This document shows positions 12,536 through 42,706 of a stretch of DNA of 44,856 nt, in pieces (the first letter of the stretch is position 1; every line of letters starts with the position of its first letter). The translations under genes and the position numbers were made by a program. Source of the stretch: a bacterium (GTDB lineage Bacteria > Calditrichota > Calditrichia > RBG-13-44-9 > J042); assembly GCA_015485355.1 (NCBI GenBank), contig WFTQ01000051.1:1-44856 (forward strand), read 5' to 3'. Below the pieces are notes generated by a model. The model was not told the origin of the DNA, searched no databases, and saw nothing but the letters and a program-made list of their open reading frames with translations.

Positions 12536-13234
12536 ATGGACAGTCAACTTCAGAGTAATCCCCCAGCCCCTTCGTTGCGTACCGTGCCGTTGTTTGCCAC
12601 CTGCCAGGCCGAGGATGTTGTTCGGCTGGAGCAGCGGGCCCGGTATCGGAAATTTAAAGCCGGCAGTATCATCGTTCAGGAAGGGCAGAGCGCAGAGGAG
12701 ATTTTTTGCATTTGCCGGGGCAAGGTTAAGTTGATGAAGGGAAATTTCCGTCGGCGGGAACGCATCGTGGCCTTTGCCGGCGGGGGCGAGATAATCGGTT
12801 TGCGGTGTTTATTGGGATTCCAGAAATTCGATAAAACCGCCGTAGCCCTGGAACAAACCGAAGGGTATTTTGTAAGCCGGTCCGAGCTGCTTCGCCTTTT
12901 CCGAAAGCATCCTGATATGATTATCAAAATAATGAAGCAGATTATCAATCATCTGGAAGAAATCGATGACCGTATTGTGGAAGTGGCTTCCAAAAAAATG
13001 GCCCAACGTCTGGCCGAAACGATTCTGTATTTAAAAACCACTTTCGGTGAAGATGATCAAGGAAATTTGAACATCCGGGTGGGCCGCAAGGACCTGGCCA
13101 ATTTTATTCATTCCAATCGGTATACCGTGTATCGCTTACTGGCGGAATTCCGCAACAAGGGCATCATCGAGTTCGACCGCAAATGCCTGAAGATTCTTGA
13201 TGAGGACAAACTCCGCGAAATTGCCCGGAAATGA
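12536..13234 (+). CDS. Crp/Fnr-family transcriptional regulator (second, tandem paralog)
   Basis: 232 aa with an effector-domain beta-roll plus HTH (RKDLANFIHSNRYTVYRLL). Confidence 0.85.
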   Translation: MDSQLQSNPPAPSLRTVPLFATCQAEDVVRLEQRARYRKFKAGSIIVQEGQSAEEIFCICRGKVKLMKGNFRRRERIVAFAGGGEIIGLRCLLGFQKFDKTAVALEQTEGYFVSRSELLRLFRKHPDMIIKIMKQIINHLEEIDDRIVEVASKKMAQRLAETILYLKTTFGEDDQGNLNIRVGRKDLANFIHSNRYTVYRLLAEFRNKGIIEFDRKCLKILDEDKLREIARK

Positions 13235-13442
13235 TACCCCCACCGCCAGGCCCTCGGAAACGGATGAAACGGTGGAGGAAGCCCACGTTTGAGAGATTTC
13301 AGAGTCCAATATCGGTGGTATATAATAACGAAAAGCAAGGAGCCGGGGAATCGTACCACGGCCGATAAGCGCCAAAACGGTTCCGGCCCTGTAAAAGCGC
13401 GTGCGGGTGAGCCGTGGTATGCCAAATCCCCGGGTAACGATT

Positions 13443-14627: not shown

Positions 14628-14657
14628 CGGAGCAACCCATTTGGAGAGATTCGCATC

Positions 14658-15572
14658 GTGAACGACCACCTGTTTCGGCTTCTGATGATTGCCTTGCTTG
14701 GAGGGGGAACCGCTGTCTGGGGTCAAGTCGATCCCGGCGCGGGCGGCCTCATTTTCTCTCATAAAACCCATGTGGTGACCAACGGGATGGCATGTGAGGA
14801 TTGCCACGCCCTGGCACTGAACAGTCTGTCCGGTCGGGATGATCTTTTTCCGGACATGGACGCCTGTGGTGAATGCCACGACGTGGAGGCCGAAGAAGAG
14901 TGCGAAATTTGTCATCGTCAACCGGACGATGTGGTGTTGATTGCCCGGGTGGATGATTACAGTCGCCTTTTTTCTCATCGAGGGCATCTGGCAGCGGGAC
15001 TGGAGTGCCCGGCCTGTCACCCAACGGTAAGCAGAAAGGATCGGGTGACGGCGTACGATTTGCCGGATATGGGCGGATGTATGGGTTGCCATCAGCGGCG
15101 CAACGTGGAGACGGATTGCCGAAGCTGTCACTCACCCGAAGAATCTTTAAGACCGTTGAGCCACGGGCCGGATTTTGAGCATCGCCATGCCGACCTGGCC
15201 CGGCTGCAGAACCGCTCCCTGACCGCAGGAAAAGATTGTGGGCTGTGCCACCGGGTCAGCGAATGCCAGCGTTGCCACGAAGGCGACAATCTGGATCGGT
15301 TAACCCATCCGTTGAACTACGCCTTTACCCACGCCTTAGAGGCTCAGGGCCGTCAGAAGGATTGTACCGGATGTCACGCCGACCGCCTGTTTTGTGTGGA
15401 GTGCCATCGCGATCAAAACGTCCTGCCGCACAATCATACAGCGGGATGGACCAATCGGATTCCCAATGATGGGGGACGGCACCGTTGGGAGGCCCAAAGG
15501 GACCTGGATGCCTGCATGGCCTGTCATGAATCCAATGCCGAGGAAATTTGCCGGCCCTGCCACAAAAGATAA
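14658..15572 (+). CDS. Dodecaheme c-type cytochrome (12 CxxCH in 304 aa), secreted
   Basis: Has a signal peptide. The 12 canonical CxxCH motifs were counted directly (CEDCH, CGECH, CEICH, CPACH, CMGCH, CRSCH, CGLCH, CQRCH, CTGCH, CVECH, CMACH, CRPCH). Confidence 0.88.
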   Translation: MNDHLFRLLMIALLGGGTAVWGQVDPGAGGLIFSHKTHVVTNGMACEDCHALALNSLSGRDDLFPDMDACGECHDVEAEEECEICHRQPDDVVLIARVDDYSRLFSHRGHLAAGLECPACHPTVSRKDRVTAYDLPDMGGCMGCHQRRNVETDCRSCHSPEESLRPLSHGPDFEHRHADLARLQNRSLTAGKDCGLCHRVSECQRCHEGDNLDRLTHPLNYAFTHALEAQGRQKDCTGCHADRLFCVECHRDQNVLPHNHTAGWTNRIPNDGGRHRWEAQRDLDACMACHESNAEEICRPCHKR

Positions 15573-15587
15573 GGAGCATCGCCGATC

Positions 15588-16616
15588 ATGCGTGGATCCC
15601 TGCTCTTTCCGGGAATTTTCATTATCGCCTTGTTGGGGTGGTCCTGCAGTGACCGACGGGAACCCTTGGCGGTGCAAACCCACCCTGCGGGATGGATGGA
15701 TCCCGCTTCTCCAAATTTTCATGGGAAGGTATTAGTGTTCGATAGCAGTCTGACCTTGAGGAGTTGTCGGAGTTGCCATGGGCGGGATTATCGAGGGGGT
15801 GACAGCAAGGTTTCCTGTTACCAGAGTGGGTGTCATCGGGGTTATCCCCATCCCGAAGGATTCGCCGTCACCACCCGTTCCCGGTTTCATGCGTTCTACA
15901 TTGCGGAAGAACTGTTGTGGAACATTCGTGCCTGTCAACGCTGCCATGGGATGGATTACGCGGGGAATGGGGTGGCCCGGAAGAACTGCCGACAGTGCCA
16001 CACCGCAGCCGAAGGTCCGGAAGCCTGCAATACCTGTCATGGGAAGTTTGAGGCGGCCGTACCGCCCCTATGGAATGCGGCTCCTCCCGAGGATTTGGGC
16101 GGTCACGTACTATCCACGGCTCTCGGCGTGGGTGCCCATCAGCATCATCTTACCGATACCACGCTGACAACCTATGTTCGTCGGGATTGCCGTCCCTGCC
16201 ACATACAGCCTCGGACGTTGGTTTCTGTCGGACATATCGATAATGTCCCTCTTCCTGCCGAAGTGGTTTTTAATGCCTTTGCTTCCGATTCCGGACGGAT
16301 TCAACCTCTGTGGAATCGGGAAGAAGCGACCTGCTCCAACATCTACTGCCATGGAGCGTTTGTTTTTTATCGGGACAGCAGCCGGTACAGCGCCTTTTAC
16401 GTCGATTCGATCATCCAGGGCAATAATCCGTCGCTCCGATGGAACCGGCTGGAAGAAGGGCCGCGGGATTGCGGCACCTGCCACGATATGCCTCCTCGGG
16501 GACATCTACCCGTGAGTGCGACCGGTTGTGTGAACTGCCATCCGCGCGTCGTGGATGCGGACCTCAATATCGTGGGCAGGGACCTTCACATCAACGGGAA
16601 GGCGGATGCCTTTTGA
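15588..16616 (+). CDS. Multiheme c-type cytochrome lipoprotein (7 CxxCH plus 2 CX4CH-like motifs)
   Basis: 342 aa. The N-terminus ...ALLGWSCS is lipobox-like. Canonical motifs are CRSCH, CQRCH, CRQCH, CNTCH, CRPCH, CGTCH and CVNCH, plus CYQSGCH and CSNIYCH. Confidence 0.85.
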   Translation: MRGSLLFPGIFIIALLGWSCSDRREPLAVQTHPAGWMDPASPNFHGKVLVFDSSLTLRSCRSCHGRDYRGGDSKVSCYQSGCHRGYPHPEGFAVTTRSRFHAFYIAEELLWNIRACQRCHGMDYAGNGVARKNCRQCHTAAEGPEACNTCHGKFEAAVPPLWNAAPPEDLGGHVLSTALGVGAHQHHLTDTTLTTYVRRDCRPCHIQPRTLVSVGHIDNVPLPAEVVFNAFASDSGRIQPLWNREEATCSNIYCHGAFVFYRDSSRYSAFYVDSIIQGNNPSLRWNRLEEGPRDCGTCHDMPPRGHLPVSATGCVNCHPRVVDADLNIVGRDLHINGKADAF

Positions 16617-16894
16617 TCGGCCGATCACCCTAAAGTTTCCCGGTCTTTCGGCGGGGGGACCGGTTCCGGAAATGACAAAAATCATGTTAAATCCTGATGA
16701 TCATCATTGTGAATAGCCTCGAAAGTTATATTTTTCTCAAAGTTTAAAATTTGATGAATGTAAATGGAGGCCGGGAATGGTGAATGCCCGAAAGGGCAGG
16801 AGTGCGGGGCGGTTTTGTGAAAAACATCATTTGTTGGCGGCCAAAGAAATCCAAACCGGGATGAAGGTGGGGCAAGGTTCCCCGTAACCGCATC

Positions 16895-16960
16895 GATAAA
16901 CCCCTGAAAGCCGATGGGGTTAACCCGCAAGGGCCGAGGGGTTTGGTTTTTCGCATTTTC
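16895..16960 (+). terminator. Candidate terminator/hairpin cluster after the cytochrome operon (AACCCC...GGGGTT and CCC-GCAA-GGG stems followed by a T-rich run)
   Basis: Seen in the sequence. Coordinates are approximate. Confidence 0.3.
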
Positions 16961-17033
16961 TTTGTATTATTCGGGTGAATGCAAGTTTGAGAGCGAATAA
17001 ATATCGGGTTGAATTAAAACGACCAATAGAACC

Positions 17034-17474
17034 ATGGAACTGAATCGTCGCAAGTTCACGAATATGCTGATTGGTGGCGGGTTACTGGGATGGTTGGCCA
17101 GTGTGCTGTATCCTTTATTCACCTATCTGATTCCCCCGAGGGTGGAAGAACAATCGTTGAATTCGGTCAAGGCCGGTAAAGTGGATGACTTCCCGCCCAA
17201 CAGTGGAAAAATCATCAAATTCGGACGAAAACCCGTATTGTTGATCCGAACCGAAACCGGAGATTTTCGGGCCTTTTCCGCCACCTGCACTCACCTGGAC
17301 TGTATTGTTCAGTATCGGGAAGACACCAAGCATATTTGGTGTGCCTGTCACAACGGGATGTTTGACCTGACGGGTAAAAATATCGCCGGACCGCCCCCGC
17401 GGCCGTTGATGCCCTACGGGGTACGCGTCCAAAAAAATGAAATTATCATAGAGAAACCAACCAATCTGGGTTAG
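17034..17474 (+). CDS. Rieske [2Fe-2S] subunit of a cytochrome b6f/bc-type complex
   Basis: 146 aa. Tat-like RRKF signal/anchor, with Rieske boxes CTHLDC and CACHNG. Confidence 0.9.
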   Translation: MELNRRKFTNMLIGGGLLGWLASVLYPLFTYLIPPRVEEQSLNSVKAGKVDDFPPNSGKIIKFGRKPVLLIRTETGDFRAFSATCTHLDCIVQYREDTKHIWCACHNGMFDLTGKNIAGPPPRPLMPYGVRVQKNEIIIEKPTNLG

Positions 17475-17476
17475 CG

Positions 17477-18559
17477 ATGAAGAGCAATATGGTTAAAAAA
17501 GTGTACAACTGGCTGGATGAACGTTACGATTTAACCCCCTTGATTGAGTTTGCCAGGCACAAGAAGGTGCCCGTGCATGAGCATACCATCTGGTATTATA
17601 TGGGTGGAGTTACCCTGTTTTTATTCTTGATTCAGATTTTTACCGGGATTCTGTTGTCGATGTATTATCAGCCCGGTCCCGATAGTTCTTATGAGAGTTT
17701 ACGATTTCTGCTGACCAAAGTGCGGTTTGGCTGGCTGATTCGTTCCATCCATAGCTGGTCTGCCAATTTAATGATATTTTTCGCCTTTGTGCACATGTTC
17801 AGTACATTTTTTACCCGGGCTTACAAAAAGCCGCGGGAGTTGACCTGGGTTACGGGGTTCATTCTGCTGAGTTTGTCCATGGCCTTCGGGTTCAGCGGAT
17901 ATTTATTACCCTGGAACGAATTGGCCTTTTTCGCCACCAAGGTGGGTACCGAAATCGTTGGAGCGGTGCCGGTTGTGGGGCCCATTATCATGAAGGTGTT
18001 GCGGGGCGGTTCCGATGTCACCGGCGCAACCATCTACCGGTTTTACGCCATTCACATCACTCTGTTGCCGGCCTTGTTCATGCTGGTGCTGGCTCTCCAT
18101 CTGGTGTTTGTGCAGAAGCATGGCATGAGCGAACCCGAACACCTGGCGAATTTGCCGGAATCCCGGAAAAAATATATCCCCTTCTTTCCCAATTTTCTGT
18201 TACGAGACCTCATCCTCTGGTTGATTGTATTCGATATTCTGGTATTTCTGGCGGTGTATTATCCCTGGGAGCTGGGTTTAAAAGCCGATCCGTTTGCACC
18301 GGCCCCCGCCGGTATTCGGCCCGAATGGTATTTTATGTTCATGTTCCAAACCTTGAAGCTGCTACCCGGCCATATTCTGTTCATCGAAGGCGAAGTGTTG
18401 GGCATCCTGATATTCATGGTTGGAGGATTGCTCTGGATGCTGGTGCCCTTCTGGGCTCTAAAAGGACGACCGGATCAACGCATTCAGCCCATGGAATTCA
18501 TTGGTGTGGTGGTTCTGATCTACATTGGTGTAATGACGATTTTGGGTTATGCATTGTAA
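17477..18559 (+). CDS. Cytochrome b, b6-type with fused subunit-IV-like C-terminus
   Basis: 360 aa with the PRELTW motif. Heme-ligand spacings are H-x13-H (helix B) and H-x14-H (helix D), which is b6-type. The start abuts the Rieske stop. Confidence 0.92.
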   Translation: MKSNMVKKVYNWLDERYDLTPLIEFARHKKVPVHEHTIWYYMGGVTLFLFLIQIFTGILLSMYYQPGPDSSYESLRFLLTKVRFGWLIRSIHSWSANLMIFFAFVHMFSTFFTRAYKKPRELTWVTGFILLSLSMAFGFSGYLLPWNELAFFATKVGTEIVGAVPVVGPIIMKVLRGGSDVTGATIYRFYAIHITLLPALFMLVLALHLVFVQKHGMSEPEHLANLPESRKKYIPFFPNFLLRDLILWLIVFDILVFLAVYYPWELGLKADPFAPAPAGIRPEWYFMFMFQTLKLLPGHILFIEGEVLGILIFMVGGLLWMLVPFWALKGRPDQRIQPMEFIGVVVLIYIGVMTILGYAL

Positions 18560-18578
18560 AAATTTGCAGAGGACCATT

Positions 18579-19880
18579 ATGAAAATCGGGTATACAAGCA
18601 TTTTCGCGGGGCTTTTCCTGGGGATGGGGGTTTTATTGGCTCAACCACAGGACGATGAAAAAACAAGCTACCTGCAGCAACTGGTGGAAGTGGATCAGTG
18701 TGTGGCCTGCCACATCGAAGAGGAAGCCCTACCGGAAGGTTTACATGAGAACGACATTCATTTGCGCGAGGGACTATCCTGTGCGGGATGCCATGGTGGA
18801 GATCCCACCTCCGACGATATGGATATCGCCATGGATCCCGCCCGTGGTTATATCGGTATACCGGACAAGCAAGAAGTGCCCTCGTTTTGCGGAAAATGCC
18901 ATTCGGATATTCGTTTCATGCGCCGGTTTCGACCGCAGGTGGAGACCGATCAGGAAGTCCAATACTATACCAGTCGTCACGGACGCCTGCTGAAGGCGGG
19001 CGATACCAAGGTGGCGGTTTGTACCGATTGCCATACCAGTCACGCGGTCTTCCCGGCATCCGATCCCCGGTCATCGGTGTACCCCACCAATGTTCCCGAA
19101 ACCTGTAAGCGCTGCCATAGCGATTCGGATTATATGGCGGAATATAAAATTCCCACCGATCAGTACGAAAAGTTTGCCGAAAGCGTTCACGGAGTGGCCC
19201 TTTTAAAGAAAAAGGATGTGGGGTCTCCCGCCTGTAACGATTGCCATGGAAATCACGGCGCCTTACCGCCGGGAGTCACTTCCATCGGGCAGGTCTGCGG
19301 CAATTGCCACATCAACAATTTACAGTATTTTCAAAAGACTAAAATGGCCGAAGAATTTAAGAAAATGGACCTGCACGATTGCATCGAATGCCATGGGTAC
19401 CATGCCGTACCACCAACCAACGATGAAATGGTTGGCGTGGGGGAACAGTCCACCTGTATCGACTGCCACGATGAAGGCGACGAGGGGTATAAAGCCGCGG
19501 TGGAAATTCGAGCGATGTTGCGGAATTTAACCACGGCGATTGATTCGGCCAATACCCTGAAAAAACAGATACAGATCATCGGGATGGATGATCTGGACAT
19601 CGAGTATCTATTGAAAGATGCGCACCAACAATTGATTCACGCGCGCACGGTGATTCATACGTTCGATCCCAAGCAGGTGGAAGAAAAAACCAAAACCGGC
19701 CTGGACAGGGCCAAAGAGGCCATACAGTTGGCATTGGAAGAGATTGAGGAATATCATCGCCGGCGTAAGGGATTCCTTTTTGCCACTTTATTTACCACGC
19801 TGTTGATTATCGGATTGTTCATTAAATTGCGGCAAATCGAATCCGAGCAAAAGGAGGATGCCCATCGGCGGGAACCATAA
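18579..19880 (+). CDS. Nonaheme c-type cytochrome with a C-terminal membrane anchor (cytochrome c subunit of the bc-type complex)
   Basis: Signal peptide starting MKIGYTSIFAGL, with a GAGGA RBS. There are 9 CxxCH motifs, and a C-terminal TM helix (FLFATLFTTLLIIGLFI) followed by a basic tail. The track ORF begins at 18549. Confidence 0.85.
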   Translation: MKIGYTSIFAGLFLGMGVLLAQPQDDEKTSYLQQLVEVDQCVACHIEEEALPEGLHENDIHLREGLSCAGCHGGDPTSDDMDIAMDPARGYIGIPDKQEVPSFCGKCHSDIRFMRRFRPQVETDQEVQYYTSRHGRLLKAGDTKVAVCTDCHTSHAVFPASDPRSSVYPTNVPETCKRCHSDSDYMAEYKIPTDQYEKFAESVHGVALLKKKDVGSPACNDCHGNHGALPPGVTSIGQVCGNCHINNLQYFQKTKMAEEFKKMDLHDCIECHGYHAVPPTNDEMVGVGEQSTCIDCHDEGDEGYKAAVEIRAMLRNLTTAIDSANTLKKQIQIIGMDDLDIEYLLKDAHQQLIHARTVIHTFDPKQVEEKTKTGLDRAKEAIQLALEEIEEYHRRRKGFLFATLFTTLLIIGLFIKLRQIESEQKEDAHRREP

Positions 19881-32661: not shown

Positions 32662-34395
32662 GTGTTTATGCAGACCCGTTATCGCTTTTTTTATGTATGG
32701 ATGGGAGTATTGATTTTTATTTTCCCGGGGTTTGGAGAAGATGTCCAGGAAACCGGCGCATTGCCACAGCTTTTCCCGAACGATGGGGCGGAAACGGCAC
32801 TGTCCCAGATGCCATCCGTAGACCCGGTTAAATTGCAGCAGGAGAAGCTGATGGAAATACTCCGGGAACGGGGTTATGATAAACACACGGTCCAGGTATT
32901 GGGGCAGTTGGTGGTATCCGGTCAACAGGAACATCAAATCCAGGCGGTGACCAAGTATCGGTTGGATAGTACTTATTATACCAAGTATGGGGATCGTTAT
33001 CGGGAATACTACATATATGATAAGAACGACAATTTTATCAAGTTTGAAAAGCACGTATGGAATAAAGATTCCAGTCGATGGGAATATTTAAGACGAATTC
33101 GATTGGATTACGATGCCGATGGATACCTCGTGGAATCAACGACGGAAAATTGGTCCCAGGAATCAAGTCAATGGGAGCCGGAGACCCGTTCTTTGTACAC
33201 CTATAATGAAGATGGTCGGTTGACAAACTATTTGTTCCAGAGATGGTTCAGTGATTCCAGCAAGTGGCAAAATGATTTGCAGATAGTTTACCAATATAAT
33301 GCCATGGGAAAATATAGCCAGATTTTGTATCAATTCTGGGATTCCAATATAAATGAGTGGGTGAATTCCGCGCGATATTTATATCAATACGATGAAAACG
33401 GTCGGACTCAGGTGTTTGAAGAACAAATATGGGACGGCGCTTCCCAACAGTGGGTCGGGAGTTTTCGCATTCATTACCAATGGGATGACAAGGGGCGACT
33501 GATTGAGATCATCAGACAGAGGTGGGATTCCGATCTTGGCACCTATGTGAACTGGGATCGCACCGAAAGGATATACGAGAATGGTTTCTTGAGATGGTAT
33601 ATCAGCTATGTCTGGGATGATCAAAACAGTGTGTGGGTTCCCCTGCTTAGGATAGAATACACCGTCAATACCGATGGGAAATTAGAAAGTCACGTCTTTT
33701 ACCGGTGGAATAGTGATTCATCAAGGTGGGATCAAAGAACCCGTACCTTGTATTATTACAATGCCCAGGGGCGAATGGACAGTTTGAAATACCAGGTATG
33801 GAACGATTCCACCGGGCAATGGCTAAATGATAGAAAAGATATTTTTACTTGGGATGCCAATGGCAATTTAAGTCAAGTCGACCGGATGCTCTGGGATCAG
33901 GATCAGGGTAGCTGGGTGCCCGACAAGCGCCGAACATTTCAGTACAATATCGACGATATTCTGGAATATTTCAAAGAAGAAGCCTGGGATTCCAACAACA
34001 ATGCCTGGGTGGAAAGTGATGGTTTTGTGTTTTTCGTGGATTCGTTTAGGTATTATAGTTATATTGTTTCCGAGTTATTTGCCTACTATTCGACCATTAC
34101 CGGAATAGAGGATGAAGTGACCACGGTTACCGGACGGTTTCACCTTTATCAAAATTATCCCAACCCGTTTAATCCGGTGACCACCATACGCTTTCGCCTG
34201 CCGGAATTCGGTCGGGTGCAGTTAGAGGTGTACAATGCTCTGGGACAGCGCATCCGAACCCTGGTAAACCAAACGCTGAATGCCGGAGAATACCGTTTTC
34301 GGTTTGATGGGACGGATCTGCCCAGCGGCGTTTATTATATTCGTTTGAAGTCCGAACGATTCCAACAGACCCGAAAGATGTTGCTGATAAAATGA
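32662..34395 (+). CDS. Secreted repeat protein with T9SS C-terminal sorting domain (W-x-D/YD-like repeats)
   Basis: 577 aa with a signal peptide. It carries about 12 tandem 26-30-aa repeats (W..D...W..xxR..YxYDxxGRL). The C-terminus is a type-A Por/T9SS domain (NYPNPFNP...VYYIRL). Confidence 0.75.
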   Translation: MFMQTRYRFFYVWMGVLIFIFPGFGEDVQETGALPQLFPNDGAETALSQMPSVDPVKLQQEKLMEILRERGYDKHTVQVLGQLVVSGQQEHQIQAVTKYRLDSTYYTKYGDRYREYYIYDKNDNFIKFEKHVWNKDSSRWEYLRRIRLDYDADGYLVESTTENWSQESSQWEPETRSLYTYNEDGRLTNYLFQRWFSDSSKWQNDLQIVYQYNAMGKYSQILYQFWDSNINEWVNSARYLYQYDENGRTQVFEEQIWDGASQQWVGSFRIHYQWDDKGRLIEIIRQRWDSDLGTYVNWDRTERIYENGFLRWYISYVWDDQNSVWVPLLRIEYTVNTDGKLESHVFYRWNSDSSRWDQRTRTLYYYNAQGRMDSLKYQVWNDSTGQWLNDRKDIFTWDANGNLSQVDRMLWDQDQGSWVPDKRRTFQYNIDDILEYFKEEAWDSNNNAWVESDGFVFFVDSFRYYSYIVSELFAYYSTITGIEDEVTTVTGRFHLYQNYPNPFNPVTTIRFRLPEFGRVQLEVYNALGQRIRTLVNQTLNAGEYRFRFDGTDLPSGVYYIRLKSERFQQTRKMLLIK

Positions 34396-34539
34396 TGCGG
34401 GGTGTCCTTTGCCGTAAGGGCGCCTGGAGCGACCAGAAAGATGGAAAGCGTTGCTTTTTGGCGAGAAGAACATAACCCACGGCGATGCTACCAGGGAAGA
34501 TGATTCCCTGGTAGCATGATCAACAGAGGGGGGCGGAAT

Positions 34540-35070
34540 TCAAGTGAAAATGATGGTGCCTCCCGCAGCCAGTGTGTAAAACTGGCCAACGGTAAGAACG
34601 TCTGAGACGTCGTCGATTAAATCTTCCCGGGTGAAGTGAAACATATCCATGGCGGCTTTACAGGCATACAGGGTTGCTCCCGCCGCGGCGATCATTTCCA
34701 GAAATTCGTCCACCGGGGGGATATCCAGTTTGTCCATTTCCTTTAGCATCATTTTGGTTACCATGGCAGACATCCCCGGAATCATCCCGATCACCGGGGG
34801 AATACCTAATGCCGGATTCCCGACGGTATCCACCCGAATCTTTTTCATCTTCTTTTTGTGAACGGCGTGAAGACCGAAGAAAGTAAAGAAAATATTGGCT
34901 TCTATGCCTTCCATACGTGCCCCGTTGGCCATGATCAGGCCGGGATAAATGCCTTCCAGAGTACCCCGTGAAATGATTATCGAAACCTTTTTTAATGGTT
35001 CTGTTGCTTGTGCCATGCCGTCCTCCTGATTTACGTTGTGGCGATGTCCCGGCGGTCGGTTTATACGCAA
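34540..35070 (-). CDS. DsrE/DsrF-like (COG2210, YrkE-like) sulfur-relay family protein
   Basis: 176 aa (probable start at internal MAQATEP...). The KKVSIIIS...FFTFFG motifs are DsrE-fold-like. The operon context is sulfur-related. Confidence 0.5.
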   Translation of the reverse strand: MRINRPPGHRHNVNQEDGMAQATEPLKKVSIIISRGTLEGIYPGLIMANGARMEGIEANIFFTFFGLHAVHKKKMKKIRVDTVGNPALGIPPVIGMIPGMSAMVTKMMLKEMDKLDIPPVDEFLEMIAAAGATLYACKAAMDMFHFTREDLIDDVSDVLTVGQFYTLAAGGTIIFT

Positions 35071-35375
35071 CCCTGGGGTTTGCCCAGCCCGGCGATTTTG
35101 GCCGCTCGTTTTGCCGGCCCATCGGGAAAAAGTTGGTATAATTGCTGAACGGGAATGCCGCCGGCGTTTTTCATCCGACGAATGGTTGGGATTTGTCCGC
35201 GCTCTTTAAAATCCTGCCGCATGAAGCGAATGACCTTCCAGTGGGCATCGGTTAACTGAATGCCTTCCTCCCGAGCCAGTTCCTCGGCGATGGATTCATT
35301 CCAATCGTCGGGATTGAGCAAAAAACCTTCGGCATCTACCTCTACGGTTTTTCCGGCGAGGGTCTTGGTGGGCAT
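35061..35375 (-). CDS. DsrC/TusE-family sulfur-relay protein
   Basis: About 104 aa from MPTKTLAGKTVEVDAEGFL..., preceded by an AGGAGGA RBS. The C-terminus ...GLGKPQGCV carries the conserved penultimate Cys of DsrC/TusE. The track ORF extends to 35426. Confidence 0.75.
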   Translation of the reverse strand: MPTKTLAGKTVEVDAEGFLLNPDDWNESIAEELAREEGIQLTDAHWKVIRFMRQDFKERGQIPTIRRMKNAGGIPVQQLYQLFPDGPAKRAAKIAGLGKPQGCV

Positions 35376-35377
35376 GG

Positions 35378-36094
35378 TTAATCCTCCTGTTTGGTTTCTT
35401 GCGTCGGTTGCAGTGGTTTGAGCCATTCTCCATTCTTAGAAGCCATGTTCTTCAGGAATTGGATCATAAAGGCGAGGCCGCGTCGCATTTCCGGGTCGCG
35501 GAGCGCTTGAAAAATTTTCCAGTAGGAAACGTGCTCCTCAATTTCGATGTCCATTTCCTTGAAAAAGCTCAGGGCATTGTTCAGTGTGGCCAGCATTTCC
35601 GGCTGTGTGAAGTTCTTCACGGTTAACAGGATGTGGGCTATGTTTTCCCGCAGTAAACGCACGTCTTCTACCGTAAAAGAGGTGACGATGGTGTCGATGA
35701 TCTTCAAGGCCTCGGTAAAGAATTCGAAATAGCCTTTGTGGTCGAGCGCGTCGAGTTGTTCCATCAACTCCAGTGCCATATCTTTGGTTAAGGGGCCGGC
35801 GTCTTCGAAAAAATGCATCAGACTTTCCAGCTGATCCATCAGGCGACTGAGATGGCGCACATTACGCAAAAGTTTCTTCAGTAAAAAGAGGACATCGCCT
35901 GTTTCGATGTGCTGGGCTACACCGTTCAATTCCTCCACCGCCGCCTGAAACACGTCCCGCGCGATCCGATTGAGATCGGAGGTCAATTCTTCCCGTTCTT
36001 GCCGCCGGCGCCGCTGCGCCGCCATCTCTTCCACAATGATATGCAACTGTTTTTCTATGCGATCAAGCCGGTGTTGAAGGGTATGGGTTTCCAT
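35378..36094 (-). CDS. DUF1641-domain protein
   Basis: About 238 aa from METHTLQHRL.... The stop of the upstream oxidoreductase is 2 nt before its ATG. DUF1641 proteins characteristically accompany SQR/NDH-2-like flavoproteins. The track ORF is extended N-terminally to 36397 by a junk-like segment. Confidence 0.65.
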   Translation of the reverse strand: METHTLQHRLDRIEKQLHIIVEEMAAQRRRRQEREELTSDLNRIARDVFQAAVEELNGVAQHIETGDVLFLLKKLLRNVRHLSRLMDQLESLMHFFEDAGPLTKDMALELMEQLDALDHKGYFEFFTEALKIIDTIVTSFTVEDVRLLRENIAHILLTVKNFTQPEMLATLNNALSFFKEMDIEIEEHVSYWKIFQALRDPEMRRGLAFMIQFLKNMASKNGEWLKPLQPTQETKQED

Positions 36095-36096
36095 GA

Positions 36097-37326
36097 TCAG
36101 CGCCTCTTTCCTGCCATGTTCATCTGGGCTTCGATGGGTAACTCCCTCCCTTTTAAGAGCAGGTTCCAGTATATCCAGCGAAACATCATTTTGCCCCAAT
36201 GGTTCATCCGGGTTTCTTCCAGAAGGGAGTAGGGGCCGACGCCGGGCAAGGGAAATTTCCCGGGAAGGGGCTCCACCGTGTAGTTGAAGTCGATTAACAA
36301 ACCTTTGCCAAAGCCGGATTCGATGAAGCAATTGGCATGCCCGTCGAAATCGGGAAGCAAGGGACGTCCCTCGATGAAGCGCAAAATGTTTTCCCAAAGG
36401 ATTTCGGATTCAAAATGCGCCACCGAACCGGCTTTGGAGGTGGGGACGTCTGTGGCATCACCGATAACGAAAATGTTTTCCCATTGCTTGGACTGTAACG
36501 TGTAGGGGTCGGTGGGGATAAAGTGCAGGTCGTCCCCCATGCCGGAGCGACCGATCACCTCCGCCCCCATGACGGTGGGAACAATCACCAGAAGATCGTA
36601 GTCCACTTCCCGGCCGTCCCAGGAGATCAGCTTGTTTCGGGTGCTGTCCACACGCCCGGTATTGAACTCCGCCACCAGACGGATGTTTTTCTTCTCCAAA
36701 AAATGACCCAGATATTTGGAAGCGATGGGTTTGGTAAAGGCGCCCGGCAGAGGGGTCACGTATTCGATCTCGACTCGGTCCCGTATCCCCTGTTCCGTGA
36801 ACCACCAATCGGCCAGAAACACAAATTCCAGGGGCGCTACCGGACATTTGATGGGCATTTCGACAATATTCATTACCAGTTTGCCCCCTTCCCAGTACTT
36901 CAAATGCTGGGCCAGTGCCAAAGCGCCATCCACCGTGTAAAAATCGAAAATGTTCTCTCTCCAACCGCCGTCCAATAATCCTTCGGTCTCTTCGGGATGG
37001 ATGTGACTTCCCGTGGCGACAATCAGAATGTCGTAATTCACCACCTTCCCATTTTCCAGTTTGACCCGGTTCCGCTCCGGCTCGATCCGCTCGATGGCGG
37101 AGATCATCACCTCGATTCCCGGCGGAAAAAAATCGCGCTTCGGCTTAATGACATCGTGTTTGGTGTAGATGCCGAAGGGAATGAATAAGAATCCTGGCTG
37201 GTAATAGTGAATTTCATCCTGGTCCACCAGGGTAATGTGCCATTCCCGCGGGTCCAGGACCGGTGCCAGTTTGTTCACCATGATGGTGCCTGCGGTTCCT
37301 GCACCAAGGATCACCAGCTTTTTCAT
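36097..37326 (-). CDS. FAD-dependent pyridine nucleotide-disulfide oxidoreductase, sulfide:quinone oxidoreductase (SQR)-like
   Basis: About 409 aa from MKKLVILGAGTAGT (Rossmann GxGxxG), preceded by a GAGGG RBS. There is a second FAD/NAD fold (VIGDATDVPTSKAG). The track ORF is N-terminally over-extended to 37647. Confidence 0.8.
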   Translation of the reverse strand: MKKLVILGAGTAGTIMVNKLAPVLDPREWHITLVDQDEIHYYQPGFLFIPFGIYTKHDVIKPKRDFFPPGIEVMISAIERIEPERNRVKLENGKVVNYDILIVATGSHIHPEETEGLLDGGWRENIFDFYTVDGALALAQHLKYWEGGKLVMNIVEMPIKCPVAPLEFVFLADWWFTEQGIRDRVEIEYVTPLPGAFTKPIASKYLGHFLEKKNIRLVAEFNTGRVDSTRNKLISWDGREVDYDLLVIVPTVMGAEVIGRSGMGDDLHFIPTDPYTLQSKQWENIFVIGDATDVPTSKAGSVAHFESEILWENILRFIEGRPLLPDFDGHANCFIESGFGKGLLIDFNYTVEPLPGKFPLPGVGPYSLLEETRMNHWGKMMFRWIYWNLLLKGRELPIEAQMNMAGKRR

Positions 37327-37334
37327 CGTCACCC

Positions 37335-37820
37335 TCATCGTTTTAGGTTTTCTCCGTTGGGAACATTTTCCCGATACGTTGACTGCCACCGCTGAAAAAT
37401 GATTGGCTTCAGGGTGTGACAATGAATGGGCAGACGGTATACCAGGCAATCCCGACAATTCTGTTGTCGGCATTTGGCCCCCACATCGGGCACACTCCAG
37501 CAAGGCCCCGTGACCTGGTGGTAAACCGGACAACGGCGGCAGTCCGCATCCAAACCACCCCGGTATTCCCAGCAGGGAATCAGGGCGTAAAGCTTGCGGA
37601 TTCCTTGTAAGTTCAATCCGTACACGGTTAGCATTTCTCGAATACACAGGAGACGTTCCAGGTCATGCAGCGAGTACCTGCGCTGTCCCCCAGGCGTTTT
37701 ATAGGGTAGTACCAAACCCTCCTGTTCGTACAAGCGCAAGGTTTGAACCGCTACCCGGAGCTTCTGGGCCACCGTTCCAATCGTGAAGACCGGTTCATAT
37801 TTGCCGATTTCCGGGGGCAT
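37335..37820 (-). CDS. MerR-family transcriptional regulator with a C-terminal eight-cysteine domain
   Basis: 161 aa. The MerR HTH is FTIGTVAQKLRVAVQTLRLYEQEGLV...RRYSLHDLERLL. The C-terminus carries CW, C-x2-C, CW, C-x4-C-x2-C and CH motifs. The stop abuts the SQR-like gene RBS. Confidence 0.75.
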   Translation of the reverse strand: MPPEIGKYEPVFTIGTVAQKLRVAVQTLRLYEQEGLVLPYKTPGGQRRYSLHDLERLLCIREMLTVYGLNLQGIRKLYALIPCWEYRGGLDADCRRCPVYHQVTGPCWSVPDVGAKCRQQNCRDCLVYRLPIHCHTLKPIIFQRWQSTYRENVPNGENLKR

Positions 37821-38183
37821 GGCTCTATCCTACATTCTTTACTGTGCGCTTTCTACATCCATTGATGAAGATTTGCAAGTGGAGTGCCAGAAAGCGCCCC
37901 CGGAGAAAAATGGGAGTAATCTATTGGTTTTTCGGTGATTGGATGCTTAAGAAGGTGGGGCGTGACGGCACGATGTTTCTCATTATTGAGAATTTTCCGG
38001 GGCCGGTATTCTCAGTTTTGAGAATCGCTTCCCGGCATAAGGGGCGGTGAGAAGTCAGGGATCAGTGGTAGTCGATCAAAAAAATCACCTGGATCATCGG
38101 GGCGGAGAGCCTGGGGATTTCAACCCCATGGGCCCGGATCAATGGGGGCACGCGGGGAATCGAGAACGAATCCCCGCAACCGG

Positions 38184-38645
38184 TCAGTCCGCTGCCCCGA
38201 AATCCTGCAAATACGTGCTCTGAATAAGCTCCCGCTCCGCCGCCTCGTGGGCCTCCAATTGCTTTAGCAGCGTAGTTATCTGATGACGAATTTCCGGAAA
38301 TTGATCGCAATCCCGGCAACTCAAAGCCTTCAAAGCCTCTACAATCCGGTCCAGGGTGTTAATGATTTCCTGATGTTGTGCCTCCAACTCTTTTAATCGA
38401 CTGTGGTTTTCCGGTTTAATCCGCAGCATGTCTTCGGTGAATCCCCCGTGTTCCTCCAGCTCAAAATGTTTTAACAGTTGATTGCGAAAATCGCGCAATC
38501 GCCAAACAAATTCCAGTTTCCAGGTGTCGAATGCTTCGCCGGATACCGGCCGTTGCATCTCTTCCAGGATGGCACCCATCATTTGTTTGAGCGCTTCGTG
38601 CTCTTTTTCGATCCTCAAAGTGATATCGGTTTTTCGGGCATCCAT
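38184..38645 (-). CDS. Hemerythrin-like (HHE cation-binding) domain protein
   Basis: 153 aa, helical, with H/E ligand motifs spaced in the HHE style (HEALKQM, HFELEEHGG, HQEIIN, HEAAERE). Confidence 0.5.
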   Translation of the reverse strand: MDARKTDITLRIEKEHEALKQMMGAILEEMQRPVSGEAFDTWKLEFVWRLRDFRNQLLKHFELEEHGGFTEDMLRIKPENHSRLKELEAQHQEIINTLDRIVEALKALSCRDCDQFPEIRHQITTLLKQLEAHEAAERELIQSTYLQDFGAAD

Positions 38646-38736
38646 GGAATCATCCTCCTTTTATTCGTTGTTTTCGATGTTCGGCGATTCGGCCGAAACT
38701 CCGCCCCCATGGCCTCCCTGCCTGCCCTGGGACTTT

Positions 38737-38759: not shown

Positions 38760-39040
38760 AGACGTTAGGCCCCCACTTGATGGGCCACACAACGTTCAAC
38801 GGTGTTTGTTTGCAAAACGATTGTATGCCAAGCCCGAATCGGGCGTTATAGGCTTCCGGATCGGTATTTGAATATCGGTAACGGAATATAGGATGATTGC
38901 AGGCGAAAACACAAGGAAAAGAAAAAACCGTTTGCCGATTGCGGTTGTCGGCGAACAATTCAATCCAGAGCTTGAATTTGTGAAATCAGGCATTTAATTT
39001 GCCCGTCCAAACGGAAACCGTGAAACCGACAGGTGGCAGT

Positions 39041-39664
39041 ATGAAACGACGCGAGGTTCTCAAAATTATATCCCTGGCCGGAGCGGCTGGACTCCTGGGT
39101 GGTGCGGAGTGGCTTTGGCCCCGATCTGCCCGGGCGTGGGTGTTGATTACCGACCGCCCCCGTCTGGATATTGCTCGTTTGCGGCGGGCGCTGGGGAGGT
39201 CGGCTAAGGCGCTGGAGCTGCACTATGCACCCGTGGAGGCGGCATCCCAGGATGTCACCCTGATTCGTCATGGGAGGGTTATCGATCCCTCGGAAGAAAC
39301 GACGGTGCCGGAGGGCATTGTGCATCTGGTTGCGGAGATGCGCCGGCGTTCCGCACCCGGGCATACGATGGTGATCCTCCAAACGCCGGTATCCGATCCC
39401 GCCCCTCGAGCGGACGTTCGGGTGGATGGGACCCTGCTGCTGCAATTGGATCCAAAGAAAAACTATAACCGCATTGAGGTTCCGGGTAGGGTGGGTAAAA
39501 CGGTGCTCAAGTGGCGGGATGGACGCATTCAGGTTGTAGAGGCCGGTTGTCGCCATAAACTGTGCCAGAAAATGGGTGCCATGGAACAGGGGCAACTGAT
39601 CTGTGCCCCGAATCGGTTGCTGGTTACCCTGCCTCCGCTGCCTTACGATGCCCTTGTGGGTTAG
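39041..39664 (+). CDS. NusG domain II (DUF1312)-like protein with Tat signal peptide
   Basis: Tat motif MKRREVLKIISLAGAAGLLGG. The C-terminus ...VVEAGCRHKLCQKMGAMEQGQLICAPNRLLV matches the DUF1312 C-x4-C...GQ.I.C.PN motif. It lies upstream of apbE. The track ORF starts at 38999. Confidence 0.55.
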   Translation: MKRREVLKIISLAGAAGLLGGAEWLWPRSARAWVLITDRPRLDIARLRRALGRSAKALELHYAPVEAASQDVTLIRHGRVIDPSEETTVPEGIVHLVAEMRRRSAPGHTMVILQTPVSDPAPRADVRVDGTLLLQLDPKKNYNRIEVPGRVGKTVLKWRDGRIQVVEAGCRHKLCQKMGAMEQGQLICAPNRLLVTLPPLPYDALVG

Positions 39665-39961
39665 CGCTCCCTTATCGGAATCGCGGCGTCGATGAATGAT
39701 CGGCGGTGCGCAGAGCAGGGGAATCATATGCGGGGGTTGAAACAATCCCGGAAATAGGGGAGCCGGACGGGTTTGGGCGGCGGAGACCGTTTCCCTATTC
39801 ACCCTACTGTAAGACGGACGGGTAATTCAGGTGGACTCTATAGTACCATGAAATTCCGCTATATCCTTTCATTATTTCCCAATCTGCCGTTCGGGAAGGC
39901 CTGGGGATGGAATCGCTTGGTGGACGGGATCAGAAAAAGGGGTTTTTGGGGAAAAAGCCGG

Positions 39962-40948
39962 ATGTGCCTGGGAATTTGGCTGGTGCTGATGGTATGGGGT
40001 ACTTCCTGCGATCGGCCCCAGGTGTTTCGTTTCACCCGTTTTTCCATGGATACTCTGGTGGAGTATACGGTGGTGGCGGCCAGTGGGGAGAGAGCCCGAC
40101 AGGCGGTAGAGGCGGCGCATCGGGAAATCCGGCGAATCGATTCCTTGTTCTGGGAGGAGAATCCCAATGGGCCGGTCTTTCGGTGGAATCACTCGCCGGG
40201 GGAAATGCCATTGCCCCGGGAGGTGGCGGAATTGCTCCGACGAAGCCTGGTCTATAGCCGGGAGTCCGGGGGGGCTTTCGATGTGACCATCAAGCCGGTA
40301 CTGGATTTATATCCTTTTGGGCGGGAACATCCGCGGCCTCCCTCAATCGACCGAATCACCCGGCGGTTGTCCCGGGTGGGGTGGCAATTTCTCAAACCCG
40401 ATAGCGGAGGTGTGGTACGCAAAGCCTATCCGGATGTGCAGGTGGCCTTAGGTGGTGTGGCCAAAGGCTATGCCGTCGATCGGGCGGTGCAGGTGTTACG
40501 AAACCAAGGCATTCGTCAGGCAATCGTCAATGCCGGTGGGGATTTGTATTGTCTGGGAAACAAGGCCGGCCGTCCCTGGGTGGTAGGCGTTCGGCATCCC
40601 CGAAAATCCGCCGAAGTGATTGCCGTGTTACGCTTGCAAAATCGGGCCGTGGCGACTTCGGGGGATTACCAGCGGTTTTTTTGGTATCAAGAAAAGCGCT
40701 ATCATCACATTTTGGATCCCCGAACGGGGCGTCCTGCAAGAAAGGCCCAAAGCGCCACAGTGGTGGCCCCGACCACGGAACAAGCGGACGCTCTGGCTAC
40801 CGCACTCTTTGTGATGGGTCCCCGGCAGGGATTGAAATGGATCGATCGCATGCCGGAAATAGAGGCCATGGTGGTGGATTCTGCGGGAACGATGCATTAT
40901 TCCCGGGGTTTTCAGAAATATCTTTACCCGAAAAAAGAAGCATTTTAG
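39962..40948 (+). CDS. apbE: FAD:protein FMN transferase (ApbE family), lipoprotein
   Basis: ApbE motifs are present (FSMDTLVEYTV, GAFDVTIKP, LGGVAKGYAVD, NAGGDLYCLG). Lipoprotein signal MCLGIWLVLMVWGTSC. The track ORF starts at 39773; an alternative start is at 39848. Confidence 0.88.
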   Translation: MCLGIWLVLMVWGTSCDRPQVFRFTRFSMDTLVEYTVVAASGERARQAVEAAHREIRRIDSLFWEENPNGPVFRWNHSPGEMPLPREVAELLRRSLVYSRESGGAFDVTIKPVLDLYPFGREHPRPPSIDRITRRLSRVGWQFLKPDSGGVVRKAYPDVQVALGGVAKGYAVDRAVQVLRNQGIRQAIVNAGGDLYCLGNKAGRPWVVGVRHPRKSAEVIAVLRLQNRAVATSGDYQRFFWYQEKRYHHILDPRTGRPARKAQSATVVAPTTEQADALATALFVMGPRQGLKWIDRMPEIEAMVVDSAGTMHYSRGFQKYLYPKKEAF

Positions 40949-41098
40949 ATATCGGCCCGGGCGGAAGGACGGGAGAACGTCACACAAACCAAGCAAAGAG
41001 ATGCTTTTGTGATAGGAAAGGGTCGCTTTTTAAAAAGGGGTTGAGGGTCGCTTGGATCGAAGGTCCTCTTGTTTGGGAATGCAAAGAGGGTGCGAGGT

Positions 41099-42706
41099 AT
41101 GGCAAAGGCAGGGTTAAATGATTGGAAGAATTCGCCGGTGGTACGCCGGCAGTTACAGGAAAAGGGCTTGACGGTGGAGCATGTCGAGAAGCAGCTGGAG
41201 CGTTTTCAGAGAGGATTTCCTCGCATTCAGCTGGAACGCCCCTGCACCATTGGTGATGGCATACGGCGGCTGTCGATATCGGAAGAGGACGAATATATCG
41301 CCCTGTACGAAGAGGCGGCGGCCGGAGGACGCGCCATGAAGTTTGTTCCTGCCTCCGGGGCGGCCACACGAATGTTCCGGGATTTACAAAACATTCTATC
41401 CCATTATTCGCGATACCGGTCTCGGTTGCGGCAGGGGGTGGATCGCATCAACGAAACCCAATTGGAACCCCTGAAACGCTTCGTTATGAATTTGCCCCGC
41501 TTCGCTTTTTTCGAGGCCCTCCAGGATGCACTGCAAAAGGATGGTTATCTGCTGGAAACACTTCTGAAAAATGCAGATTATGACATCTTGCTGGAGTATT
41601 TATTGTCCGAAAAAGGACTCCATTACGGGCAACTGCCCAAGGCATTGATTTTGTTTCATCGCTATCCACAGGGACCGCGCACCCCGATGGAAGAACACCT
41701 GGTTGAAGGGCGAGGCCATGTACGAGACGCCCAAGGACGGGTGCGCATTCATTTTACCGTACCCGGGGCCTTTCGGGACACCATTGCCCGCTTCTTGCAA
41801 AACGTTGGACCCCGATACGCAGAGCGCGGGACGCGTTTCGTGCTGGACTATTCCACGCAGAACCCCGCCCTGGATATTGTCGCCGTGGATTTTAACAATC
41901 GTCTGGTGCAGGATGCCTCGGGGCGTCTGGTGTTTCGTCCCGGCGGCCATGGTGCCCTGCTGGAAAATTTGAATCGTTTGCAGGGGGACATAATTTTTAT
42001 CAAAAATATCGATAACGTAGTGCCGGACCCCTTCAAAGCGCCCGTCATTCGCTACAAAAAGGTGTTGGGGGGAATCCTGGTGTGGGTGCAGGGGCAAATC
42101 TTTCAATTCCTGCGGTGGCTGGAAACGCCCCGGGTGACATCGGATCAGTGGAAAACCATCGAAACATTTTTACGTGATTGGTTTTATCGGGTTTTCCCGG
42201 AAGATTATCACCGTTGGAGTCCCCAGCGTCGTCGGGACTTTTTGCGAAGACAACTGAATCGGCCTATAAGGGTGTGCGGTATGGTAAAGAATCAAGGCGA
42301 ACCCGGTGGCGGCCCTTTCTGGGTGCGGGGAAGGGACGGAACCATATCCCTTCAGATTGTGGAAGAGGCTCAGGTGGATTTGGACGACCCGCTCCAACAA
42401 CGGGTATGGCAACAGGCCACTCATTTTAATCCCACCGACCTGGTTTGCGGGGTACGCAATTACCGTGGACAACCTTTCGATCTAATGCAATTTCGCGATC
42501 CGGAAACCGGTTTCATTACCGTGAAATATCTGAATGGAAAAGAAATCAAAGTAATGGAGCTGCCGGGCTTGTGGAACGGTTCCATGGCTTTCTGGAATAG
42601 TATTTTTGTGGAAGTGCCCCTGGAAACGTTCAATCCGGTGAAAACGGTTTTCGATTTATTGCGGCCCCGCCATCTGGACCGGGCGAATGGGGAGCGGAGA
42701 CAATGA
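41099..42706 (+). CDS. DUF4301-like protein (predicted nucleotidyltransferase-fold)
   Basis: About 535 aa. The N-terminal pattern (...KGLTVEHVEKQLERFQRGFPRIQLERPCTIGDGI...) resembles the DUF4301 family as I recall it. Unverified. Confidence 0.4.
   Translation: MAKAGLNDWKNSPVVRRQLQEKGLTVEHVEKQLERFQRGFPRIQLERPCTIGDGIRRLSISEEDEYIALYEEAAAGGRAMKFVPASGAATRMFRDLQNILSHYSRYRSRLRQGVDRINETQLEPLKRFVMNLPRFAFFEALQDALQKDGYLLETLLKNADYDILLEYLLSEKGLHYGQLPKALILFHRYPQGPRTPMEEHLVEGRGHVRDAQGRVRIHFTVPGAFRDTIARFLQNVGPRYAERGTRFVLDYSTQNPALDIVAVDFNNRLVQDASGRLVFRPGGHGALLENLNRLQGDIIFIKNIDNVVPDPFKAPVIRYKKVLGGILVWVQGQIFQFLRWLETPRVTSDQWKTIETFLRDWFYRVFPEDYHRWSPQRRRDFLRRQLNRPIRVCGMVKNQGEPGGGPFWVRGRDGTISLQIVEEAQVDLDDPLQQRVWQQATHFNPTDLVCGVRNYRGQPFDLMQFRDPETGFITVKYLNGKEIKVMELPGLWNGSMAFWNSIFVEVPLETFNPVKTVFDLLRPRHLDRANGERRQ

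Follow-up and report, generated by a model that had tools for sequence, protein, structure and literature searches.

The gene merR-2CW lies on the minus strand at positions 37335..37820 of contig WFTQ01000051.1 (assembly GCA_015485355.1), from a bacterium of the Calditrichota, and encodes a 161-residue regulator in which a MerR-type DNA-binding domain is joined to a cysteine (Cys)-packed module. The whole stretch analysed, 44,856 nucleotides in length, is hereafter termed the window. The regulator is a real, conserved and unstudied MerR-type DNA-binding protein, and profile comparison identifies its Cys-rich domain as a divergent offshoot of the two-CW domain, which is catalogued (NCBIfam NF045718) but uncharacterised. 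Its gene heads an operon for sulfide oxidation and sulfur relay, and is preceded by a sigma54-type promoter element and a palindrome that recurs upstream of related regulator genes. We propose, at about an even chance, that the protein is an autoregulated repressor of this sigma54-dependent operon, which is released when a Cys-bound centre is altered by reactive sulfur or a redox change. The regulator is thus probably a new bacterial way to sense sulfur or redox state.

To our knowledge, every reactive-sulfur sensor characterised in bacteria (SqrR/BigR, CstR, FisR and a few more) stems from one of a handful of mostly proteobacterial and firmicute model organisms, and none belongs to the MerR family. 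The Calditrichota, Ignavibacteriota and Bacteroidota are abundant in sulfidic sediments, and in these groups a MerR-type protein with an uncharacterised module of six to eight Cys residues is closely and specifically linked to three kinds of operon, for sulfide oxidation, for thiosulfate/polysulfide reduction and for an enzyme of the tetrathionate-reductase family. The present analysis defines a regulon, names a promoter type and offers an operator for testing, in addition to a first plausible role for the two-CW domain, which is also found in chemoreceptors and membrane proteins of anaerobes.

Architecture and conservation of the regulator

The ATG-initiated gene is supported by its open reading frame (ORF) and by 66 homologs from a database search, with E-values down to 1e-109 and one sequence 99% identical; JGI labels homologs 'HspR'. 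Its TGA stop codon overlaps an alternative ATG of the following gene for sulfide:quinone oxidoreductase (SQR) in the sequence ATGA. An overlapping ORF in another frame (36097..37647) was rejected as an in-frame upstream extension of the SQR gene, the MerR frame being the conserved one.

The regulator possesses nine Cys residues, of which C59 lies in the DNA-binding domain and the other eight are packed within 52 residues (83-134). These eight are arranged as C83-W, C94-x2-C97, C107-W, C117-x4-C122-x2-C125 and C134-H, exactly the motifs named by the original prediction, which had been made from the sequence alone. An alignment of 65 homologs revealed that C83-W84, C97, C107-W108, C122, C125 and Y128 are invariant, and that C59, C117, C134 and the near-invariant K138 are at least 90% conserved. 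The original prediction had also named homologs that lack most of these residues in the same genomic context as the observation that would count against it; instead, all nine Cys residues are kept in 31 of 31 non-redundant orthologs that lie directly upstream of a type III SQR gene. The domain's eight Cys residues and C59 are likewise retained in 13/13 Psr-linked homologs. Judged by its conservation across the 65 homologs and the 31 SQR-linked orthologs, the Cys-rich pattern is not a product of chance.

The N-terminal part of the protein comprises a MerR-type winged helix-turn-helix (wHTH) domain of the short GlnR/TnrA/HspR-like type (residues 12-77; 37590..37787, minus strand), as indicated by Pfam, NCBIfam, Foldseek and a PDB profile search. 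Residues 12-77 matched Pfam MerR_1 (PF13411) with 61.1 bits against a cutoff of 21.6, and PF00376 with 43 bits against 28.2, which bears out the membership of the MerR family that had been predicted. The NCBIfam equivalog models matched the N-terminus only, and every score was under its cutoff. The top match was HspR (NF047375, 63.7 bits versus 105), and lower scores were given by the models for SoxR (TIGR01950, 38.9 versus 116.9), TnrA (NF053740, 33 versus 140) and the metal sensors (TIGR02051, 35 versus 151; TIGR02044, 30 versus 147; TIGR02047, 32 versus 151; TIGR02043, 27 versus 168). The predicted dissimilarity of the Cys region to SoxR and to the metal sensors is supported by these scores.

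We modelled the full regulator by alignment-based AlphaFold, with a predicted local distance difference test score (pLDDT) of 89 and a predicted template modelling score (pTM) of 0.81. In the model the wHTH domain consists of four helices (residues 14-21, 25-33, 51-65 and 71-79), and no long coiled-coil or dimerisation helix is predicted after residue 79. The Cys-rich domain, which had been placed after such a helix, begins only three residues past helix 71-79. It is modelled with very short helices only and is followed by a C-terminal helix (residues 137-151; 37368..37412, minus strand) of low pLDDT (~57-65), which in this model might make a dimer or partner contact. Structural similarity search using Foldseek revealed that residues 2-80 most closely resemble GlnR/TnrA, with an E-value of 3e-4, a root-mean-square deviation (RMSD) of 0.9 Å and 36-37% identity; the PDB sequence-profile search also placed GlnR/TnrA on top (E = 1.3e-18), and the full-length model matched only MerR N-terminal domains. 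In a separate protein of 209 residues, P0065, from a 2.3-kb JGI contig, an N-terminus 71% identical to that of the regulator is joined to PF04071, a zinc-finger-like Cys-rich small domain, rather than to a two-CW domain. This fusion implies that Cys-rich sensor modules are swapped on one DNA-binding domain.

The regulator fails the tested defining features of the canonical metal sensors, SoxR, HspR and GlnR/TnrA. The Bacillus proteins GlnR and TnrA (PDB 4r4e, 7tea and 4r22) share with it the short MerR-type architecture without a long coiled coil, a short palindromic operator (putative here) and a regulatory part C-terminal to the wHTH domain; however, that part is a short tail under the control of glutamine synthetase, without a Cys domain. 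The GlnR/TnrA operator is TGTNA-N7-TNACA, compared to CTACAT-N6-ATGTAG here, so that only the wHTH fold is common to both. HspR is a repressor, encoded in the operon that it controls and acting at an inverted repeat in the promoter of that operon, but it has no Cys-rich domain, and the regulator studied here has no dnaK or chaperone context. The HspR operator, HAIR, is CTTGAGT-N7-ACTCAAG, which differs from the palindrome described below. The canonical metal sensors (MerR, CueR, ZntR and CadR/PbrR) have a long antiparallel coiled coil and a loop with two or three Cys residues, both of which are absent here. SoxR resembles the regulator in being a MerR-family protein with a C-terminal Cys cluster; in contrast, its CX2CXCX5C motif holds a [2Fe-2S] cluster after a long dimerisation helix, and it acts on a sigma70 promoter with an over-long spacer. 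The regulator lacks CX2CXCX5C, spaces its six to eight Cys residues otherwise and has its putative operator downstream of a sigma54 -12 element. According to a 2024 review of bacterial sensors (PMC11672702), SoxR is the only established iron–sulfur (Fe-S) MerR protein, and its C-terminal Cys cluster senses redox-active molecules.

The Cys-rich domain and its two-CW relatives

The Cys-rich domain, as delimited by profile search, hhalign and the structural model, spans residues 82-135 (37416..37577, minus strand) and contains C83, C94, C97, C107, C117, C122, C125 and C134. No Pfam family reached its threshold on the C-terminal region, where only noise was returned, and Pfam holds no model for the domain. 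A domain-profile search over 1.84 billion (1.84e9) cluster representatives yielded 432 matches at E ≤ 1e-3, 62 of them at E ≤ 1e-10. Among the best 150 of the 432 matches, 88 have a recognisable MerR N-terminus, and the remainder comprise gene fragments, stand-alone proteins of 70-95 residues, methyl-accepting chemotaxis proteins in which two copies are arranged in tandem at the C-terminus (P0097 and P0115), and proteins of ~115 residues that combine a six-Cys copy with a membrane helix at the N-terminus.

The two chemotaxis proteins link these domains to a catalogued family. They were found by the MerR-domain profile with E-values of 1.8e-13 and 1.2e-11, respectively, and score 93 and 91 bits on NF045718, the "two-CW domain" model (cutoff 35). 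The regulator itself gave no match to this model at E up to 10. Weak matches were obtained for 10 of 21 domains from its homologs (best E = 0.0048), and the six homolog domains rescanned singly scored 11-13.6 bits, below the cutoff of 35. Comparison of the MerR-linked domain with bona fide two-CW copies by hhalign gave a probability of 98.65% with an E-value of 4.6e-16, and the two share the signature PCW..C..CPAY..CW..CxxC.VY. On this sequence comparison, the Cys-rich domain of the regulator is a divergent branch of the two-CW domain and is not unique to this protein. The MerR branch differs from the two-CW domain in that C94 takes the place of a Cys at about position 89, C117 and C134 are extra, and a DNA-binding domain is attached.

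When 208 domain copies were surveyed, about 200 of them showed a core of six Cys residues, which consists of C83, one Cys at ~89/90 or 94, C97, C107, C122 and C125, whereas C117 and C134 are optional and vary independently. Judging from this census, the functional unit of the domain superfamily is six Cys residues rather than eight. The motif C97-P98 was considered as a haem-regulatory CP motif and rejected, as members of the domain family do not consistently keep the Pro.

The Cys domain is modelled with a pLDDT of 85-95 within the full protein, compared to 68 when modelled alone. A PDB sequence-profile search with the domain returned only noise (E ~1) and thus no solved relative, and a literature search for 'two-CW domain' returned nothing. 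One named two-CW chemoreceptor comes from a metagenome-assembled genome (MAG) of the Thermodesulfobacteriota and carries the domain copies at its cytoplasmic C-terminal end; one stand-alone two-CW protein comes from the anaerobe Thermanaerosceptrum. Many small membrane-anchored two-CW proteins exist, one of which, the six-Cys protein P0221 (116 residues; locus L090, 2257-3518), is encoded after a GerE-type response regulator and directly before a multihaem cytochrome c.

This distribution bears on whether the domain senses at all. It might only be a structural zinc (Zn) module for dimerisation or partner binding, with regulation exerted by a protein partner, as glutamine synthetase acts on GlnR/TnrA and DnaK on HspR. 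The nearest solved or curated relatives of the regulator are indeed these partner-controlled proteins, and the missing coiled coil means that another dimerisation device is needed. However, occurrence of the same domain on chemoreceptors, on membrane anchors and as stand-alone proteins is typical of a sensory module, and no conserved partner gene is evident besides those for sulfur enzymes; we consider this explanation distinctly unlikely.

Promoter, putative operator and proposed regulon

Conserved promoter elements were found by aligning the regions upstream of the regulator genes, where clade A comprises 47 non-redundant upstream regions. Sigma54 promoters have GG at -24 and GC at -12, with the spacing TGGCAC-N5-TTGC, and the element TGGCACTCCACTTGC (37875..37889, minus strand, read from 37889 to 37875) has this -24/-12 layout, with an exact match to TGGCAY-N5-TTGM. 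Of the 47 clade-A promoters, 39 contain TGGCAY-N5-TTGN, for which the background rate is 0.009 per 150 nt, and a sigma54 element was found in at least 20 of 52 clade-B promoters. No sigma70-like promoter was found in 34300-38700. The sigma54 pattern is matched exactly once more, by TGGCACTGGAGTTGA (35764-35778, minus strand), which lies inside the DUF1641 coding region with no palindrome after it and is probably a chance match.

A putative operator, O1 (37853..37870, minus strand; CTTCATCAATGGATGTAG), was recognised by cross-locus comparison and begins 4 nt past the -12 element. It reads CTTCAT-CAATGG-ATGTAG, with one mismatch to the 18-bp palindrome CTACAT-N6-ATGTAG, which occurs within two mismatches in 44 of the 47 clade-A promoters and starts 2-4 nt past the -12 element in all 39 of those with the sigma54 motif. 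The perfect form CTACAY-N6-RTGTAG has 36 copies in 763.5 kb of related loci, where 0.35 would be expected by chance, and 36/36 lie within 130 bp upstream of a merR-2CW start codon. A putative weaker operator, O2 (GCACAG-TAAAGA-ATGTAG; 37830..37847, minus strand, with its right half-site ATGTAG at 37830-37835), was recognised by the 23-nt repeat spacing. A second [AT]TGTAG exactly 23 nt after O1 is present in 10 of 44 clade-A promoters, that of the window included, against a background of 0.015 per 45 nt. In a divergent protein clade the palindrome takes the variant form CTACAC-N6-GTGTAG. The constancy of these sites suggests that the regulator binds CTACAT-N6-ATGTAG.

Given the usual sigma54 geometry, transcription would start at about 37863, within O1, and the palindrome would extend from about -7 to +11, over the DNA that has to be melted. 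The operators of canonical MerR activators differ in position, as they lie in the 19-20 bp spacer of a sigma70 promoter. We infer that regulation proceeds by repression.

The promoters of other clades provide further observations. In clade B (L049-L084, Ignavibacteriota) TAATTATAAATGTAGCT comes after the sigma54 element, and the start codon lies almost immediately behind it, the leaders being very short; apparently the operator of this clade has a shorter spacer and overlaps the -12 element. The promoter of a Gemmatimonadota ortholog, P0052 (L085, 4900-4983), has the same layout as that of the window, TGGCACCGAATATGC and then CTACATCAGCAGATGCGG, and an NtrC-type sigma54 activator gene (Response_reg, Sigma54_activat and HTH_8 domains; L085, 3423-4760, minus strand) is divergently adjacent.

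Alternatively, the protein could be a classical MerR-type activator that stays on the DNA and, once its centre is modified, untwists the promoter, here a sigma54 promoter. MerR-family activators, SoxR included, act by DNA distortion, as stated in the 2024 review (PMC11672702). The operator is centred on the DNA to be melted, and an adjacent sigma54 activator gene is missing in most loci, both of which are in keeping with such a role. Nevertheless, the operator is not inside a 19-20 bp sigma70 spacer, the modelled protein lacks the coiled coil that transmits the distortion, and sigma54 needs an AAA+ activator, one of which is adjacent in L085. Activation of this kind is highly unlikely.

In the window, the regulator gene is followed by four co-directional genes, giving five genes on the minus strand. 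The first encodes a type III SQR of 409 residues (36097..37326), which matched NF049943 with 662 bits (cutoff 525) and Pfam Pyr_redox_2. The second, whose ATG lies 2 nt past the SQR stop codon, encodes a DUF1641/HMP protein of 238 residues (35378..36094; PF07849). It is followed by a TusE/DsrC-family sulfur-relay protein with a single C-terminal Cys (..PQGCV; 35061..35375), supported by PF04358 (129 bits) and TIGR03342 (102.8 bits, cutoff 53.5), for which the shorter start was chosen because its homologs have 105 residues. The final gene of the conserved operon encodes a DsrE2-like sulfur carrier (34540..35016), with 109 bits on PF13686 and 96.5 bits on NF047629, the latter under the cutoff of 210. 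The regulator almost certainly controls this sulfide-oxidation operon behind it.

The context survey scanned one genome per GTDB species and returned 80 loci. Close relatives of the regulator (52-80% identity), from the Calditrichota and a few other FCB-group MAGs, have the same four genes directly downstream in 31 non-redundant loci, whereas two members of this group precede a PhsA/PsrABC-like operon instead. A second clade with 36-48% identity, in which one Cys is shifted from position 94 to ~89, comprises proteins from the Ignavibacteriota and Bacteroidota in addition to a second copy in Calditrichota genomes. Its operons are of two types: one encodes PhsA/PsrABC-like reductases and YeeE-type sulfur transporters, and the other an octaheme cytochrome of the tetrathionate-reductase family (TIGR04315, 591 bits) together with cytochrome b and YeeE-type transporters. 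Examples of such operons headed by a paralogous merR-2CW gene lie at L001 11462-16459, L023 5000-7960 and L055 5983-10547, and in the Calditrichota the paralog operons often directly follow the SQR operon. More distant family members precede HdrA/MvhD-like genes, multihaem cytochromes, and ABC/FtsX or TRAP transporters.

Some distant members adjoin ArsR-type regulators and RND efflux genes, which, together with the MerR family and the many Cys residues, would fit a sensor of a thiophilic heavy metal (Hg, Cd, Cu or As) like the canonical MerR proteins. Yet the metal-sensor equivalog models score far under their cutoffs and on the wHTH domain only, the modelled protein has no metal-binding loop after a coiled coil, and the regulated genes encode sulfur and respiratory enzymes rather than efflux or detoxification functions. 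A heavy-metal sensor is extremely unlikely, and we discarded both this reading and a SoxR-like one in view of the model scores, the Cys motif and the gene context.

A DUF1641 gene invariably accompanies the type III SQR gene, and more than 30 Calditrichota loci retain the two together. Recent work showed that proteins of the DUF1641 family serve as quinone-conducting scaffolds for Huc, ForCE and Ndh/Ndh-Ncp (PMC13524794). By analogy with these scaffolds, the operon may encode an undescribed SQR-DUF1641 complex.

Proposed mechanism, signal and neighbouring genes

In the repressor mechanism that we propose, two short GlnR/TnrA/HspR-like wHTH domains would bind CTACAT-N6-ATGTAG over the region that sigma54-RNA polymerase must melt, with a weaker site 23 bp downstream of the main operator, and the bound regulator would block initiation. 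The two-CW-like domain would stand in for the usual MerR coiled coil and effector loop and pack against the wHTH domain. It would be built round a cofactor held by the six universal Cys residues (C83, C94, C97, C107, C122 and C125), with the clade-specific C117, C134 and C59 near it. Polysulfide or persulfide formed from sulfide, or a change in redox state or O2, might modify or destroy the Cys-bound centre; the altered centre would change the interface between domain and wHTH, and DNA would be released. A separately encoded sigma54 activator would then switch the operon on. As a regulatory design, a MerR-family repressor that occupies the stretch of a sigma54 promoter to be melted would be unusual.

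A bound metal or cluster is favoured because six invariant Cys residues lie within ~50 cytoplasmic residues with almost no regular secondary structure, and because aromatic residues flank the Cys residues and the domain occurs in anaerobes. We favour an Fe-S cluster, with a likelihood somewhat short of even; a Zn-thiolate site is a possible but doubtful choice, and metal-free thiols with no cofactor are improbable. If the cofactor is indeed an Fe-S cluster, the regulator would be the second Fe-S MerR type after SoxR, with another architecture.

The same regulatory layout could also serve a Zn-structured or metal-free thiol sensor of sulfane sulfur, in which per- or polysulfide bridges between Cys residues (for example C117, C134 and C59) release the repressor. 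FisR, a sigma54 activator, works through sigma54. It and two other proteins, SqrR/BigR of the ArsR family and CstR of the CsoR family, sense reactive sulfur via Cys residues and control sqr genes, as described in the 2024 review (PMC11672702). In that text the characterised reactive-sulfur sensors all use Cys pairs rather than clusters (PMC11672702). Their targets, SQR and sulfur-transfer genes, are like those found here, whereas their folds are unrelated and their sensing Cys residues number two or three. A thiol sensor agrees with the sulfur-specific regulon of the two closest clades, and with the extra C59, C117 and C134 of the sulfur-linked MerR clades, which six-Cys forms lack. Against it, the six invariant Cys residues in a nearly structureless cytoplasmic domain suggest a bound metal or cluster, and the domain is also found without sulfur genes nearby. 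On balance, we regard a thiol sensor as an unlikely but serious alternative. The earlier proposal of an Fe-S or polysulfide-reactive cluster therefore stands in part: the sulfur regulon fits a sulfur- or redox-reactive Cys centre, but sequence and model do not decide between Fe-S and thiol chemistry.

As to the signal, the regulons of the two nearest clades suggest reactive sulfur, in the form of polysulfide or persulfide that arises from sulfide, thiosulfate or tetrathionate. The presence of the module in chemoreceptors of anaerobes, beside multihaem cytochromes and in Hdr-like operons points to a more general redox signal.

Several observations weigh against the repressor reading. The palindrome of the window, taken alone with its one mismatch, is not significant (39/100 shuffles reach one match), so its significance comes from the cross-locus comparison and not from the window copy. 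Clade B keeps the sigma54 element and the right half-site, but the left half overlaps the -12 element. An ORF with the GAFTGA motif of sigma54 activators is absent from the window, and activator-like GAFTGA ORFs occur in only 3 of 84 loci. The regulator has no canonical Fe-S motif such as CxxCxxC. Moreover, the distant members precede non-sulfur genes (HdrA/MvhD-like, FtsX and TRAP), which means that the signal may be general redox rather than sulfur.

A broader proposal is that two-CW is an unrecognised cofactor-based sensor, Fe-S or polysulfide-reactive, plugged into transcription factors, chemoreceptors and membrane proteins. The MerR fusion would then gate sigma54 promoters at the melting site and, once modified, might aid opening by MerR-style untwisting, thereby gating or partly bypassing the AAA+ activator. 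We hold this very unlikely; if true, no MerR-family protein before this regulator would have been shown to act on sigma54-RNA polymerase. The 2024 review distinguishes only three groups of redox-sensing MerR proteins, SoxR and NmlR among them (PMC11672702). No MerR-family sensor of reactive sulfur or persulfide was found in the literature searched, including that review (PMC11672702). The literature search for a MerR protein at a sigma54 promoter gave no precedent and only general reviews, and a search for MerR with psr or Caldithrix returned nothing.

Other genes of the window lie around this operon. On the strand of the regulator gene, a gap of 363 bp separates it from an upstream gene for a hemerythrin-domain protein (38184-38645, minus strand), whose position is not conserved in related loci. 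Divergent from the hemerythrin and regulator side, the region 38999-42706 (plus strand) encodes a NusG_II-domain protein, an ApbE flavin transferase and a DUF4301 protein. Farther away, the region 13401-19880 (plus strand) encodes multihaem cytochromes, a Rieske protein and cytochrome b, which together form a bc-type complex with multihaem partners, and this cluster is preceded by two tandem genes for CRP/FNR-family regulators (11626-13234, plus strand).

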